Source of the DNA: an uncultured Thermoproteaceae archaeon
GTDB taxonomy: Archaea > Thermoproteota > Thermoprotei > Thermoproteales > Thermocladiaceae
Length of the DNA: 26,990 nt
Assembly: GCA_964575955.1 (NCBI GenBank)
Contig: CAZNTG010000012.1
Location: 1 to 26,990, forward strand
Direction: 5' to 3'
The notes under the pieces were generated by a model. It worked only from the letters and a program-made list of their open reading frames with translations, ran no database searches and was not told the origin of the DNA. The translations under genes were made by a program, and so were the position numbers. The first letter of the stretch is position 1; each line of letters opens with the position of its first letter. Below are positions 10,886-20,578 of this stretch, piece after piece.

Positions 10886-11140
10886 ATGCTAACAAGAAAA
10901 AACATGAATTACAAATGTACAGTATGTGGACAAGAAATAACTCCTAGAGAAGTTGCATATATTAAAGGTAGTGTTGTTGTATGTATTAAATGCTTACCAA
11001 AATACTACATAAAAAACATATGTCAGATAGTTAATAGAAGATTAAAAGGTGAAGATCACCCATCCTGTAAATACTGTAGATTTTATGAAGAATGTACTAG
11101 ATATATAGAAGAGATAAGAAAAAGCTTAGAAGAGAAATGA
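10886..11140 (+). CDS. Small Cys-rich zinc-binding protein
   Basis: CTVC, CIKC, C, CKYC...C motifs in 84 aa. Confidence 0.7.
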   Translation: MLTRKNMNYKCTVCGQEITPREVAYIKGSVVVCIKCLPKYYIKNICQIVNRRLKGEDHPSCKYCRFYEECTRYIEEIRKSLEEK

Positions 11141-11185
11141 TGAATCCTTCGGCTTACTGAAGATGATGTAAATGACCTGCGCTGA
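11137..11185 (+). ncRNA. Box C/D methylation-guide sRNA
   Basis: C box ATGATGA 11137-43; guide ATCCTTCGGCTTA; D' CTGA 11157-60; C' ATGATGT 11163-69; guide AAATGACCTGCG; D CTGA 11182-85. Confidence 0.88.
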
Positions 11186-12107: not shown

Positions 12108-13295
12108 ATGTCTGAGAAATTTAATATAAAGAAGTTAAATTATAAAGCTTTCAGATATTCACAGGTATCAATAGCATTACTATACTTTTCATATGGATTT
12201 CTATATGGATTTCTAGCATGGTATATACCATTTAAACTAGTATTCATGCTAGGACCAATAATAGCAGCAATATTTTTAGTACTTATGCATTTTATAGACA
12301 TATTTCTATCAACTATAGCTAATCAAGTAAAGAAGTTTAAGACTAGGAAAATATTGACTAGTGTTGGAATTATTCTATACTTAATATCTTACATACTTAC
12401 AATACTCTCAGTTACATATAGTAATATCATACTTATATTAATTGCATGTATATGTGTTGGTCTTTCTGCAATAGGCTCAATCCCTCTAAGTTTAATATTA
12501 TTTGAAAATCTACCTGAAGAATATTCATATGAAATATCTTCAATATGCTCAATATTGCTTGTTGTTGGTTGGGGAGTTAGTAGTTCACTAATTGCATACC
12601 TATTTATCCTAGATAAGATCTATGTTATAATTTTAATATCTTCAATATGTACATTATCACTAGCACTATCACTAACTTTGAGAGGTGTTTATAGAGAGAA
12701 TGATAATTCTAAGATTAGTATATTTTCAGCTTTTAGAGAATATATTAAGTCAGGTTTTGAAATTTTGAAAATTAATAATAGAATTGCAATCATGTTACTA
12801 TTAAGCTCACTTGCATGGGGAATAACTTATGAATATTTATCTCCGTATCTTTTTGAAGCTAAACATCTAACTATCCTAAATATTGGTCTACTATTCACAG
12901 CAATGATACTTGTTGGTGGTGTTGTTGATCTAGTTATAGATTCAATCATTGGTATGAATAGTGAATATTTTAGAAATATCGTTATCTTAAGCTCATTTAT
13001 AGGATTTCTATCTTGGATTGCTGTAATATTTGTACCTCCATATCTCGAGATTATACCAATAACAATATCATATTCCTGTCTTAGAATCTCAATATTGAAA
13101 GGATGTTATATATACCTACTATCAACTAGTGATTATGATAAGAAGATAGCTATGTCAGATATATATCATGCATATACAGATTTTCTAAATATTATTGCTG
13201 TAGGTATTGGTGGTGTTCTATATTCAATATTTAGAAGTTTACCAATAATATGCACATCTACACTACAATTACTAACACTTGCAACAGTTATCTAA
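12108..13295 (+). CDS. MFS-type transporter
   Basis: 395 aa with about 12 hydrophobic segments in two halves separated by a hydrophilic loop. Confidence 0.7.
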   Translation: MSEKFNIKKLNYKAFRYSQVSIALLYFSYGFLYGFLAWYIPFKLVFMLGPIIAAIFLVLMHFIDIFLSTIANQVKKFKTRKILTSVGIILYLISYILTILSVTYSNIILILIACICVGLSAIGSIPLSLILFENLPEEYSYEISSICSILLVVGWGVSSSLIAYLFILDKIYVIILISSICTLSLALSLTLRGVYRENDNSKISIFSAFREYIKSGFEILKINNRIAIMLLLSSLAWGITYEYLSPYLFEAKHLTILNIGLLFTAMILVGGVVDLVIDSIIGMNSEYFRNIVILSSFIGFLSWIAVIFVPPYLEIIPITISYSCLRISILKGCYIYLLSTSDYDKKIAMSDIYHAYTDFLNIIAVGIGGVLYSIFRSLPIICTSTLQLLTLATVI

Positions 13296-13860
13296 CTTTA
13301 AAACTTCTTAAACAACCTCTATAGTGCCTAACTGCAGGACATCCAGGACATGTACCTTCTCTAAATCTTCTACATTTCAAACAATCTCTACCACATGGTG
13401 CAACATCATATACCTCCAATGGAATTTTTAGATATAGATAATCTGGAATGTACAATCTGTCTAGTATATATACTTCAACTTTCTCAGCTTCAGGAATCAT
13501 CTTTATAGCACAGTCAAGAGATATACAGTCAATCACTGACTCTTCCTCTGCAATCATCATAGCTATGTATGTTCTAGATCCTGATGATGCAAACATTATC
13601 ATTCTAGGACATTTATAAAATCTTTCTAATATATTTTCAATATTTGAACTACTTCTCAATCTACCAATAACAAGTACTATACCTTTAATAAAATCTTTAC
13701 TAAATAATGCTGTTATTTTTATTGGTAATTTTCTTAATCTTTTTCTAATTGCTGTATGTGATATTCCGACAATCTTCCCAAGATCTCTAATAGACATTCT
13801 ACCATCTTGCTGTAGTGCTGATATTATCATAATGTCAATATTGTCAAGTTTGAACTCCAT
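13288..13860 (-). CDS. Lrp/AsnC-family HTH regulator with C-terminal Cys cluster
   Basis: LDNIDIMIISALQQDGRMS..L...VGISHTAIRKRL; C-terminal CGRDCLKC...CPGCP. Confidence 0.85.
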   Translation of the reverse strand: MEFKLDNIDIMIISALQQDGRMSIRDLGKIVGISHTAIRKRLRKLPIKITALFSKDFIKGIVLVIGRLRSSSNIENILERFYKCPRMIMFASSGSRTYIAMMIAEEESVIDCISLDCAIKMIPEAEKVEVYILDRLYIPDYLYLKIPLEVYDVAPCGRDCLKCRRFREGTCPGCPAVRHYRGCLRSFKVR

Positions 13861-13868
13861 CTAGAAAT

Positions 13869-13882
13869 TTTCCAATTGGAAA
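13869..13882. promoter_or_regulatory. Perfect 14-bp palindrome TTTCCAATTGGAAA, candidate operator
   Basis: Lies in the 68-bp divergent gap between the Lrp regulator and the TSUP transporter. Confidence 0.55.
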
Positions 13883-13928
13883 CTCATATATTTATTTTCC
13901 ATAACTGAGGTTTACAAAATGCAGAAAC

Positions 13929-14738
13929 ATGATGTATATGATAGTAAAGATAATATTACTAATACTCACAGGTATAGCTGCAGGTATTGTAGGTGGTTTT
14001 CTAGGTATCGGTGGTTGTGTAATAATGCTTCCAGCACTAGTATTTCTATTTGGATATTCAGTACCTGTAGCTATAGGTACAACAATTACAGCAGTCATAG
14101 TTACTGCAAGTTCAGGTGCTGCAGCTCATATAAGATTGAAAAATGTAGACTATAAGACTGTGAAGATTGTTGCAATATCTGGAGCTATAGGTTCTGCTGT
14201 TGGTTCAATAATATTTATGTATATTTGGAAACAGACATGGCTTCTAGATCTAATTCTTGGAGGTGCATTTCTATATGTAGCAGTCAGGATGGTGTATGAA
14301 GGATTGAAGAGGGGTAAACTACCTGAGAAAGTTGGTAAAGAAGTTCCTGGTGGCGTAATATCTAAATCTTTGATAGGCTTCTTCATAGGTATAATATCTG
14401 GAATTGTTGGACTTGGAGGAGGTTATGCACTAGTACCAGCATTCATATACATACTAGGATCACCTGTAAAGATTGCTGTAGGAACATCATTACCATCATT
14501 CATATCTATAGCTGTTGTAAGTGCAGGATTTAAAATGTGGCAACATCTTGTAGATCTAGTAGCAGCTGCATGTCTAGGAGGTGGTACAGCTCTAGGTGCT
14601 TGGATTGGTGCATGGCTAGTACCTAGATCACCTGTATGGATTATAAGGCTAGTATTTGGATTTGTATTTCTATTCGTGGCTTTAGAATTCATATTTAAAG
14701 GACTACACCCATTCATACATCACATAGTTATAGTTTAA
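13929..14738 (+). CDS. TSUP / TauE-SafE family sulfur-compound transporter
   Basis: Duplicated GIGGC..LP / GLGGG..VP motifs, AIGT / AVGTS, about 8 TM segments. Confidence 0.9.
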   Translation: MMYMIVKIILLILTGIAAGIVGGFLGIGGCVIMLPALVFLFGYSVPVAIGTTITAVIVTASSGAAAHIRLKNVDYKTVKIVAISGAIGSAVGSIIFMYIWKQTWLLDLILGGAFLYVAVRMVYEGLKRGKLPEKVGKEVPGGVISKSLIGFFIGIISGIVGLGGGYALVPAFIYILGSPVKIAVGTSLPSFISIAVVSAGFKMWQHLVDLVAAACLGGGTALGAWIGAWLVPRSPVWIIRLVFGFVFLFVALEFIFKGLHPFIHHIVIV

Positions 14739-15984: not shown

Positions 15985-16086
15985 GGGGCGTTACTAATTT
16001 TTGGTAACACCCCTCAAGAATGTTAGAATGTGTAAAAACCTGATGCAATAATCATCAGAAATTCCAATTTCAATCCTCTTTTTGAG
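15985..16086 (+). repeat. Left arm of a perfect 102-bp inverted repeat
   Basis: GGGGCGTTACTAA...CCAATTTCAATCCTCTTTTTGAG is the base-for-base reverse complement of 17327-17428. Confidence 0.97.
16034..16058 (-). terminator. Candidate pre-crRNA terminator (hairpin + U tract)
   Basis: Minus strand reads CTGATG-attattg-CATCAG-G-TTTTT just after the trailer repeat; identical copy on + at 17355-17379. Confidence 0.5.
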
Positions 16087-17115
16087 ATTCTCGACAATGC
16101 ACATGTCAACACTGGTGGAGGCGTAGAGTGGCTCCTTTCAATCCTCTTTTTGAGATTCAGCATATGCAGACTCCAAGATACGTGAATACCGTGCAACAGA
16201 TGCTTTCAATCCTCTTTTTGAGATTCTGATGCAGGATGAAAAACTTTGGACATCAGAGATTGATCTTGACTTTCAATCCTCTTTTTGAGATTCCTCTGTG
16301 TTGGACTGTACGTGAAGTAGACCAAGTCATAAGTTTTCTTTCAATCCTCTTTTTGAGATTCCAAGAGTACATAGACAGGTTGACAGTGTTTAATGATAGT
16401 TGTGCGTTGTTCTTTCAATCCTCTTTTTGAGATTCGGATACTTCAGACAGCACTCATATACGTGCTCTACAGCTGATGATCTTTCAATCCTCTTTTTGAG
16501 ATTCGAGGATTGAGGCAATGCAGTTCATTGAGGCTTGTAAATCAATCTTTCAATCCTCTTTTTGAGATTCGGAACATTGTCGTGGGGAATAACTTTTGCA
16601 AGCACAAATGCCTTTCAATCCTCTTTTTGAGATTCCCCCGTCTCGGGACTGTGCACTGTGGAGGACATGTGGGACACCTGCTTTCAATCCTCTTTTTGAG
16701 ATTCAGAGTTTTTGGACAAGTATGGAGTCTAGAAAGTTGTGGAGGCTTTCAATCCTCTTTTTGAGATTCGATTAGATGATGATAACATTGTCATAAGAAC
16801 ATCTCAACCTACTTTCAATCCTCTTTTTGAGATTCACTGAATTATTAGAGTACATAGCAAAGAAAGACGGTGAAAGTGAGTCTTTCAATCCTCTTTTTGA
16901 GATTCAACTTTTAATGCTATTAATCAAACAATTTTTGGGAAGTCTTATGTCTTTCAATCCTCTTTTTGAGATTCAATTATACATGATGAGTTTTTACTAG
17001 GCTGATACATGATGAGGACTTTCAATCCTCTTTTTGAGATTCCGTGTCTAAGAACGTCGTTAGAAATCGTAACACCGTCGAAAGTTACGTACTTTCAATC
17101 CTCTTTTTGAGATTC
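16067..17115 (-). CRISPR. CRISPR array: 16 repeats (24 bp, GAATCTCAAAAAGAGGATTGAAAG on -) and 15 spacers of 41-50 bp
   Basis: Repeats start at 16067, 16135, 16203, 16270, 16338, 16412, 16481, 16547, 16612, 16681, 16746, 16812, 16882, 16951, 17019, 17092. The ATTGAAAG handle, the right-hand leader and the mutated left terminal repeat fix the orientation. Confidence 0.99.
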
Positions 17116-17175
17116 TGTTTTCTTGTTTTTTCTGTTTGTTTTTGTTTTGTGTTTTTTCTTAAGTTTTTCCTATTC
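17116..17175 (-). promoter_or_regulatory. CRISPR leader with BRE/TATA
   Basis: Minus strand reads GGAAAAACTTAAG followed by an A-rich tract running into the first repeat. Confidence 0.8.
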
Positions 17176-17215
17176 TACCATTAGAACATCCATAACTCAG
17201 CCCTAAACCATAATA

Positions 17216-17346
17216 GAGACTTCCAAAGAACAATTGAAAATGTTATTATGTGTCAAGTCCGTGAGAAGAAGAGCTACATGAAGGATATTGAGCCTGAGCC
17301 ATTTCTCAGATTCATCTTCATGAAACCTCAAAAAGAGGATTGAAAT
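17216..17346 (+). CRISPR. Degenerate, oppositely oriented mini-array / solitary repeat unit
   Basis: AAACCTCAAAAAGAGGATTGAAAT (17323-46) is 21/24 identical to the repeat. A weaker repeat-like GAGACTTCCAAAGAACAATTGAAAA lies at 17216-40. Confidence 0.5.
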
Positions 17347-17428
17347 TGGAATTTCTGATGATTATTGCATCAGGTTTTTACACATTCTAACATTCTTGAG
17401 GGGTGTTACCAAAAATTAGTAACGCCCC
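17327..17428 (-). repeat. Right arm of a perfect 102-bp inverted repeat
   Basis: Exact reverse complement of 15985-16086. Confidence 0.97.
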
Positions 17429-20401: not shown

Positions 20402-20452
20402 GTGATGAAGACTTCGGCTACCAGAATAGATGAAGAATATCACCCAAGCTGA
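20402..20452 (+). ncRNA. Box C/D guide sRNA
   Basis: C GTGATGA 20402-08; guide AGACTTCGGCTAC; D' CAGA; C' ATGAAGA 20430-36; guide ATATCACCCAAG; D CTGA 20449-52. Confidence 0.82.
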
Positions 20453-20501
20453 TCAGCGAGTAGACGCATCATCACTAATCAGGTAAGAGCGTGATCATCA
20501 T
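20453..20501 (-). ncRNA. Box C/D guide sRNA
   Basis: Minus strand: ATGATGA-TCACGCTCTTAC-CTGA-tta-GTGATGA-TGCGTCTACTCG-CTGA. Confidence 0.9.
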
Positions 20502-20525
20502 GAATGAAGTATTGAATTCGTGTAG

Positions 20526-20578
20526 TCAGTTGCGACACACCTCTTCACTTACTTATCTGCCGCTCAGACGTTCATCAT
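20526..20578 (-). ncRNA. Box C/D guide sRNA
   Basis: Minus strand: ATGATGA-ACGTCTGAGCGG-CAGA-taagtaa-GTGAAGA-GGTGTGTCGCAA-CTGA. Confidence 0.85.

Follow-up and report, generated by a model that had tools for sequence, protein, structure and literature searches.

How does a spacer in an archaeal CRISPR array come to carry the boxes of a box C/D small RNA (sRNA), the class of RNA that guides 2′-O-methylation with L7Ae, Nop5 and fibrillarin? The question is raised by a stretch of 26,990 nt (hereafter the window) from an uncultured Thermoproteaceae archaeon (contig CAZNTG010000012.1 of assembly GCA_964575955.1), in which the second-newest spacer of an array, at 16975-17018, presents a C box, a guide-length segment, a D′ box and a C′ box in the order and spacing of the archaeon's own C/D sRNA genes. 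The + strand corresponds to the sRNA sense and the CRISPR RNA (crRNA) to its complement. The spacer almost certainly derives from a box C/D sRNA gene, and we favour, with a rough probability of 0.6, the explanation that it stems from DNA foreign to the host, whether of a mobile element or of the chromosome of another archaeon, that encodes a canonical C/D sRNA.

Architecture of the spacer

The repeats bounding the spacer (16951-16974 and 17019-17042) belong to the Rfam family CRISPR-DR45, of which the array contains 15 perfect copies and a 16th copy, with one mismatch, at 16067. The spacer is unique and lies between repeats, as CRISPR spacers do, and its length of 44 nt is the modal value in a set of 72 spacers that belong to the repeat family. 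Its + strand consists, in order, of AATTATAC, ATGATGA, GTTTTTACTAGG, CTGA, TAC, ATGATGA and GGA. These segments comprise an RUGAUGA C box, a guide of ~12 nt, a CUGA D′ box and, within the 3-9 nt past D′ that are typical, a UGAUGA C′ box. The GGA after the C′ box represents the first 3 nt of a would-be D guide, after which the CRISPR repeat begins. The spacer therefore stops 3 nt past C′, and the adjoining repeat has no CTGA at 10-15 nt, so the copy held in the array is without a D box. Stop codons are present in all three + frames, which excludes a coding sequence on that strand.

The polarity of the array was established from its flanks and repeats. An alignment shows that ~130 nt on the right-hand side of 17115 are also conserved beside array 1 of contig C6 in the same genome, and the reverse complement of the repeat terminates in ATTGAAAG, which corresponds to the 8-nt crRNA 5′ tag made by Cas6 as described in an excerpt of PMC3491384. 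The conserved leader, the degenerate repeat at the distal end and this tag together place the leader on the right and the production of crRNA on the - strand, and with the leader on the right the spacer at 16975-17018 is the second newest in the array.

Chance and the host sRNA background

Chance does not account for the three-box architecture of the spacer. We scanned both strands (3.04 Mb) of the host genome (G000; 1.52 Mb, 33% GC, 15 contigs, 94.7% complete), including three further arrays on contigs C2, C10 and C14, and obtained 25 matches to the three-box pattern, 24 of which are complete C/D sRNAs and the 25th of which is the spacer. In all of the other host matches (24/24) a D box follows 10-15 nt after C′. 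As every one of them is a complete sRNA, the three-box pattern marks sRNA genes in this background. Two matches were observed in the window against 0.00 expected from 100 shuffles, and a three-box hit was recovered in 0/20000 shuffled sets of the 72 spacers (analytic expectation 1.6e-5).

The details of the spacer also agree with the host sRNAs. The base ahead of its C box is A, with A or G at this position in 23/23 strict host sRNAs, and its D′-C′ distance is the commonest host value (host linkers of 2-6 nt, counted to TGATGA). Rfam at gathering thresholds detects the repeats only, and misses the real sRNAs of the window as well. An earlier note, made from the sequence of the window alone, had reported the spacer, the coordinates of its boxes and their C-guide-D′-C′ order, and these are correct by the sequence and by the Rfam repeats. 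It had also described four C/D sRNAs of the same spacing in the window, which are confirmed as candidates (three of the four with 1-2 box mismatches), and its placement of the array on the - strand, with a second-newest spacer whose crRNA is antisense to the sRNA, is upheld by the leader, the degenerate repeat and the tag. Coordinates are collected in Table 1.

Table 1 Features of the CRISPR array, the sRNA-like spacer and the C/D sRNAs of the window
Feature	Position	Strand	Remarks
CRISPR array	16067-17115	-	16 repeats (CTTTCAATCCTCTTTTTGAGATTC on +), 15 spacers; crRNA from - strand
Degenerate trailer-end repeat	16067		Array end opposite leader
Leader	17116-17245	-	T-rich on +, ~130 nt; aligns with flank of same-repeat array 1 on C6
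Spacer	16975-17018	+ (sRNA sense)	44 nt; crRNA is the complement; second from leader
C box ATGATGA	16983-16989	+	
Putative 12-nt D′ guide GTTTTTACTAGG	16990-17001	+	33% GC
D′ box CTGA	17002-17005	+	
TAC linker, D′ to C′	17006-17008	+	3 nt
C′ box ATGATGA	17009-17015	+	3 nt after D′
12-nt direct repeat ATACATGATGAG, first copy	16979-16990	+	Period 26
12-nt direct repeat ATACATGATGAG, second copy	17005-17016	+	14-nt interval between copies
Host C/D sRNA	20453-20500	-	Perfect boxes; spacing reference
C/D sRNA candidate	11138-11185	+	Same spacing
C/D sRNA candidate	20403-20452	+	Same spacing
C/D sRNA candidate	20526-20577	-	Same spacing

Host sRNA genes occur in clusters, for example at C9:111295 and 111361 and at 20403-20577 of the window, and at C3:125693-125740 a further TGATGA begins immediately after a D box.

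Search for the source of the spacer

The best match to the spacer elsewhere in the host genome (94.7% complete) is 13 nt, and no second copy that would make the spacer self-targeting was found there. At ≤3 mismatches in 26 nt, no match was obtained in 60 relatives outside the host assembly (6 of the same genus, 30 of the same family) or in 400 genomes of the phylum, giving a total of 460 Thermoproteota together with the relatives. Neither the 21-nt core, searched exactly, nor the boxes and their flanks with a free 12-nt guide recovered any match in viral contigs, genome contigs (one genome per GTDB species) or metagenome contigs, and the 5′ and 3′ halves of the spacer were likewise absent from viral contigs. 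A blastn search of the spacer against phages returned chance matches only (E = 3), and the whole array, compared with phage and plasmid records, yielded no protospacer. In a BLAST search of the array against 40 relatives, the matches listed (with 279 more beyond them) were repeat-to-repeat only. Contig C14 was considered as a mobile element on account of a spacer match there and was rejected, as the match is a spacer of another array at the contig end.

One sequencing run labelled as a hydrothermal vent metagenome (X1) contains 87% of the words sampled from the array region and probably represents the source sample. Of the six runs listed for this region, none is recorded as RNA. Its contigs over 16963-17030 comprise a single 152-nt contig, which is the array itself and has no loose ends, although this is no proof of absence. 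Three other runs (X2-X4) gave no contig over the same interval, and a 44-nt partial match could escape the contig searches of all four runs.

These results bear directly on the proposal of the earlier note that the spacer targets an sRNA of the host or of a related strain, for which neither the host genome nor the 60 relatives provided a candidate; the short-match search that it advised, of the host genome and of viral and plasmid contigs, likewise returned no protospacer. We consider it unlikely that the spacer came from the own sRNA gene of the host or of a very close strain, with autoimmunity or regulation by self-targeting as the outcome and with the gene either in the unassembled ~5% of the genome or since lost. 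Short-lived self-targeting spacers are expected near the leader, which is where this spacer lies, and its box flanks and spacing match those of host sRNAs; the assembly, moreover, is incomplete to the extent that even the rRNA genes are missing. Against this origin stand the 13-nt limit of host matches and the empty result in all 6 same-genus and all 30 same-family genomes, as well as the X1 assembly, where the array contig is the only one that covers the spacer and no partial pieces were seen, within the limit stated above. In addition, a self target bearing a protospacer-adjacent motif (PAM) would be harmful because a DNA-targeting type I-A system is present.

Recurrence of sRNA-like spacers in other genomes

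Spacers of this kind were sought in other genomes by anchored scans, in which a C box, 12 nt and a D box were tied to the 8-nt repeat end in both orientations. The scans covered 321 genomes, 120 from the class and 201 from a Sulfolobales-like order. The antisense scan gave three hits in the 120 class genomes, namely the window spacer, one in G002 (same genus) and a host sRNA outside the arrays; the last, beside a lysine/glutamate-rich coding sequence, was judged to be a chance hit. It gave three further hits in the 201 genomes of the order, of which G259 and G488 lie in arrays and G554 is an ordinary sRNA gene that does not; the G488 hit consists of two boxes and is at chance level. The sense scan also gave three hits in each set. 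Five of these are ordinary sRNA genes outside arrays (L034 being judged by its matched string, which is identical to that of L033), and the sixth, in G595, lies in an array and has two boxes.

Besides the window spacer, two of the array hits are sRNA-like. In G002 (L030:1473-1522, contig C21) there is a complete unit of C box (one mismatch), 11 nt, D′, 3 nt, C′, 12 nt and D, antisense to the crRNA. It occupies the oldest and last spacer slot of an array with the repeat CTTTCAATTCTTTTTTAGATTTTTG, where degenerate repeats flank it, and it begins and stops almost exactly where the slot does. In the Sulfolobaceae-like G259 (L039:1498-1533, contig C1), a 36-nt spacer contains C, 12 nt, D′, 4 nt and C′ (one mismatch), also antisense to the crRNA. 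It reads GCG, ATGATGA, 12 nt, CTGA, CTTA, AGATGA and terminates at the C′-like box. Neither was seen again in the genomes searched: the G002 unit has no other copy in G000-G005 and none in IMG/VR, and the G259 spacer has none in 47 genomes of its family, in phages, in plasmids or in IMG/VR. The guides of both were compared with rRNA and found no match except for one single 1-mismatch hit, with none for G259 in its own rRNA.

The G002 unit raises a further explanation, in which the element acts within the array, through + strand transcripts that would carry the D′-loop-C′ motif and bind L7Ae, or in which spacer slots copy sRNA genes to new places. It is suggested by the complete sRNA-like unit that fills the last G002 slot almost end to end between degenerate repeats, and by the orientation of the sRNA-like spacers, all three of which are antisense to the crRNA. 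The movement of C/D sRNA genes in archaea is, moreover, called an open question in excerpts of PMC3491384 ('Mobile C/D box sRNAs') and PMC7994747 (Discussion). However, neither a D guide nor a D box is present in the window copy, which is thereby unable to fold into the terminal C/D kink-turn; Cas1 in this genome (338 aa) is without a reverse-transcriptase part; and three cases in 321 genomes are compatible with rare random sampling. We therefore regard this explanation as very unlikely. By a rough estimate, if DNA with sRNA genes is sampled rarely, about this number would be expected, a few cases among thousands of spacers.

Evidence against an sRNA gene on foreign DNA

Several results weigh against the uptake of an sRNA gene from foreign DNA. 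None of the searches recovered a protospacer, and with it the D guide and D box, the PAM and the kind of source stay unseen. Recurrence in the anchored scans was counted per genome and not per spacer, and an orientation of three antisense to zero sense is too few to mean anything. The strict four-box C/D pattern occurs 12 times in the host genome alone and only twice in 2.9 million IMG/VR contigs, a near absence that lowers the probability of a viral source. The putative guide, at 33% GC, ranks with the bottom 6% of 50 host guides (mean 54%). On their left side the C and C′ boxes share 5 identical nucleotides, compared with 0-1 nt in 25/25 host sRNAs, and because the boxes lie within the 12-nt direct repeat ATACATGATGAG, with its period of 26, the two C-type boxes are not independent of each other.

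The guide was also compared with potential targets, as the earlier note had advised. As 16S and 23S rRNA are absent from the host assembly, the rRNA operons of nine relatives were used instead. The complement of the guide, CCTAGTAAAAAC, has no match at ≤1 mismatch in these operons, and none in 46 host tRNAs or in the rRNA of G259. The power of this comparison is low: in a control with 46 genuine guides of the host, no more than 12 matched the sense strand of one relative's rRNA (≤1 mismatch in 11 nt) and ~1/46 the antisense strand. Because of this low power, and because the host rRNA is not assembled, the missing target is a weak argument. The one perfect 12-mer match that the host genome contains, on C6 at about 236135, is no more than chance would give.

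The direct repeat and the composition of the guide lend themselves to an explanation without any sRNA, in which a short interspaced repeat (iteron-like or tandem, with ATACATGATGAG every 26 nt) or a piece of a - strand gene fits the pattern by accident. One duplication event would raise the chance estimate by about 1/P(one box), and such mimicry of a full sRNA is seen in one of the two IMG/VR hits (L022:4704-4753, about 61% GC), a perfect 26-nt tandem duplication that accidentally fits all of the four-box C/D pattern. Frame -3 of the spacer is open, frame -1 is open until a terminal stop, and the guide is AT-rich with no target found. Nevertheless, a single unit would still need TGATGA, 12 nt and CTGA together with a repeat period that happens to bring the following box to 2-10 nt past CTGA, and the three-box pattern never occurs outside real sRNAs in the 3.04 Mb of host sequence. 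The array spacers of G002 and G259 show the architecture without such a duplication. Furthermore, the copies of ATACATGATGAG differ immediately past their 12 nt (TT versus GA), so the spacer is not a simple tandem repeat. The earlier note had named a simple tandem repeat as what would overturn its interpretation; the twofold occurrence of the 12-nt unit is real, whereas the tandem repetition is not. An accidental fit is thus in our view quite improbable.

Mobile element or chromosome as a possible source

If the sRNA gene came from foreign DNA, as we favour, its carrier may have been a virus or plasmid with its own methylation guide, a source that the earlier note had also considered, or the chromosome of another archaeon, and we consider these two about equal. 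Viruses of hyperthermophilic archaea are thinly sampled. Spacers derived from the chromosomes of other cells or from episymbionts are known, as described in an excerpt of PMC12612501. A literature search found no paper on a methylation guide of an archaeal virus or plasmid, nor on sRNA-like spacers.

The second IMG/VR hit (L023:14177-14225, - strand) looks like a canonical C/D pattern, with all four boxes and a run of T after them. It lies at the 5′ end of an integrase open reading frame (ORF; 13099-14271, - strand) on a tailed-virus contig with portal and ParB genes, and it may be a virus-borne sRNA or host DNA at the attachment site.

Each CRISPR spacer preserves a dated trace of DNA that entered the cell, and a spacer that represents a C/D sRNA gene absent from the assembled host would mean that such genes arrive on incoming DNA. 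If the carrier was a virus or plasmid, no earlier methylation guide of a mobile element in archaea would, as far as the literature search went, be in print; if it was the chromosome of another archaeon, the spacer would be one more case of ordinary inter-species spacer uptake. The more general proposition, that mobile elements of hyperthermophilic Thermoproteota carry their own box C/D guides, recorded so far only in CRISPR arrays, is tentative and on present evidence doubtful. Were it correct, type III systems could sense an invader via an abundant guide RNA. A bolder variant, hinted at by the unit in the last slot of G002, would make spacer slots a copying route for sRNA genes.

Proposed acquisition and use of the spacer

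On the favoured explanation, the source of the spacer would be foreign to the host, and the protospacer would have spanned the 5′ three-quarters of a C/D sRNA gene, consisting of an 8-nt 5′ flank, the C box, a guide of 12 nt, D′, a linker of 3 nt, C′ and the opening 3 nt of a second guide. It would have been acquired recently, as an ordinary CRISPR spacer from foreign DNA. Transcription of the array from the leader at 17116+ on the - strand, followed by cleavage by Cas6, would then yield a crRNA complementary to the sRNA.

The genome encodes systems that may use such a crRNA. A complete type I-A cassette between the two C6 arrays comprises Csa1, Cas1, Cas2, Cas3″, Cas3′, Cas5a, Csa2, Csa5, Csa3, Cas6 and Cas4, and contigs C2 and C7 carry two Cmr2/Cas10 (type III) ORFs, 1006 and 1176 aa in length. 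According to an excerpt of 10.1101/486738, type I-A systems rely on a CCN PAM for both acquisition and interference, and type III systems target transcripts according to an excerpt of PMC7515739. The crRNA may guide the type I-A complex of the host to invader DNA. Since it is the complement of the sRNA sense strand, it could also pair with the sRNA itself, a polarity that would suit recognition of the sRNA transcript by the two Cas10 systems. Use of the spacer by either system is, from gene content and polarity, a plausible expectation.

Within the type I-A cassette, a 412-aa ORF between Cas3′ and Cas5a (L024:5327-6565, - strand, on C6) has no NCBIfam hit and is, by position, a candidate for the large subunit (Cas8a).

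The array and its surroundings

The host genome contains six CRISPR arrays with at least two repeat types (C2:59749-60642, two on C6, C10:17405-18215, one on C12 and C14:17660-18735). The cas genes are far away from the window array, which is neighboured by an F420-ligase-like gene, TauE and a wyosine radical-SAM gene. The newest spacer of this array (17043-17091) has 30 identical nt in common with a spacer of C6 array 2 (430545-430586), and the spacer at 16227-16269 is identical to C6:430272-430315 at 42/43 positions, indicating that two arrays drew spacers from the same regions of invaders.

An inverted repeat of 105 nt, with 99% complementarity, lies at 15985-16089 and 17324-17428 and encloses the array and its leader, with 1234 nt between the arms. 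Each arm consists of ~82 nt of flank and a degenerate terminal repeat. This arrangement resembles a cassette in which inverted ends enclose an array, or else a second array that is empty and divergent.

Comparison with known systems

Among known systems, the spacer is closest to archaeal box C/D sRNA genes, having the same boxes and spacing as the 24 complete host genes. It differs from them in ending 3 nt after C′, with no D guide or D box, in having a guide for which no target was found, in the 5-nt identity to the left of its boxes, unlike 25/25 host sRNAs, and in lying in an array slot, where it is read antisense from the array promoter.

As a spacer, it resembles those from foreign chromosomes and episymbionts described in the excerpt of PMC12612501 in its lack of a viral or plasmid match and in its cellular-type gene content; unlike those, it has no donor genome among one genome per GTDB species (exact search) and 460 Thermoproteota. 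With self-targeting spacers, as they appear in an excerpt of PMC6990116, it shares a leader-proximal position and a host-type gene content, but it has no copy in the assembled host genome.

A further comparison is provided by TIGR arrays, which, as presented in an excerpt of PMC12045711, have two alternating repeats of 8-12 nt, spacers of ~9 nt, CCA/UG motifs and a Nop-domain Tas gene, occur in phages and archaeal viruses, and are evolutionarily linked to box C/D ribonucleoproteins. The likeness, as far as that excerpt goes, lies in short conserved repeats interspersed with guide-length segments and carried by viruses. The spacer is distinguished from the arrays so described by its single 12-nt repeat, 14-nt interval, canonical kink-turn boxes and 12-nt spacing, and neither of the two IMG/VR four-box hits extends into a five-box tandem form. 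On the description in that excerpt, TIGR arrays are the nearest virus-borne relatives of C/D guides.

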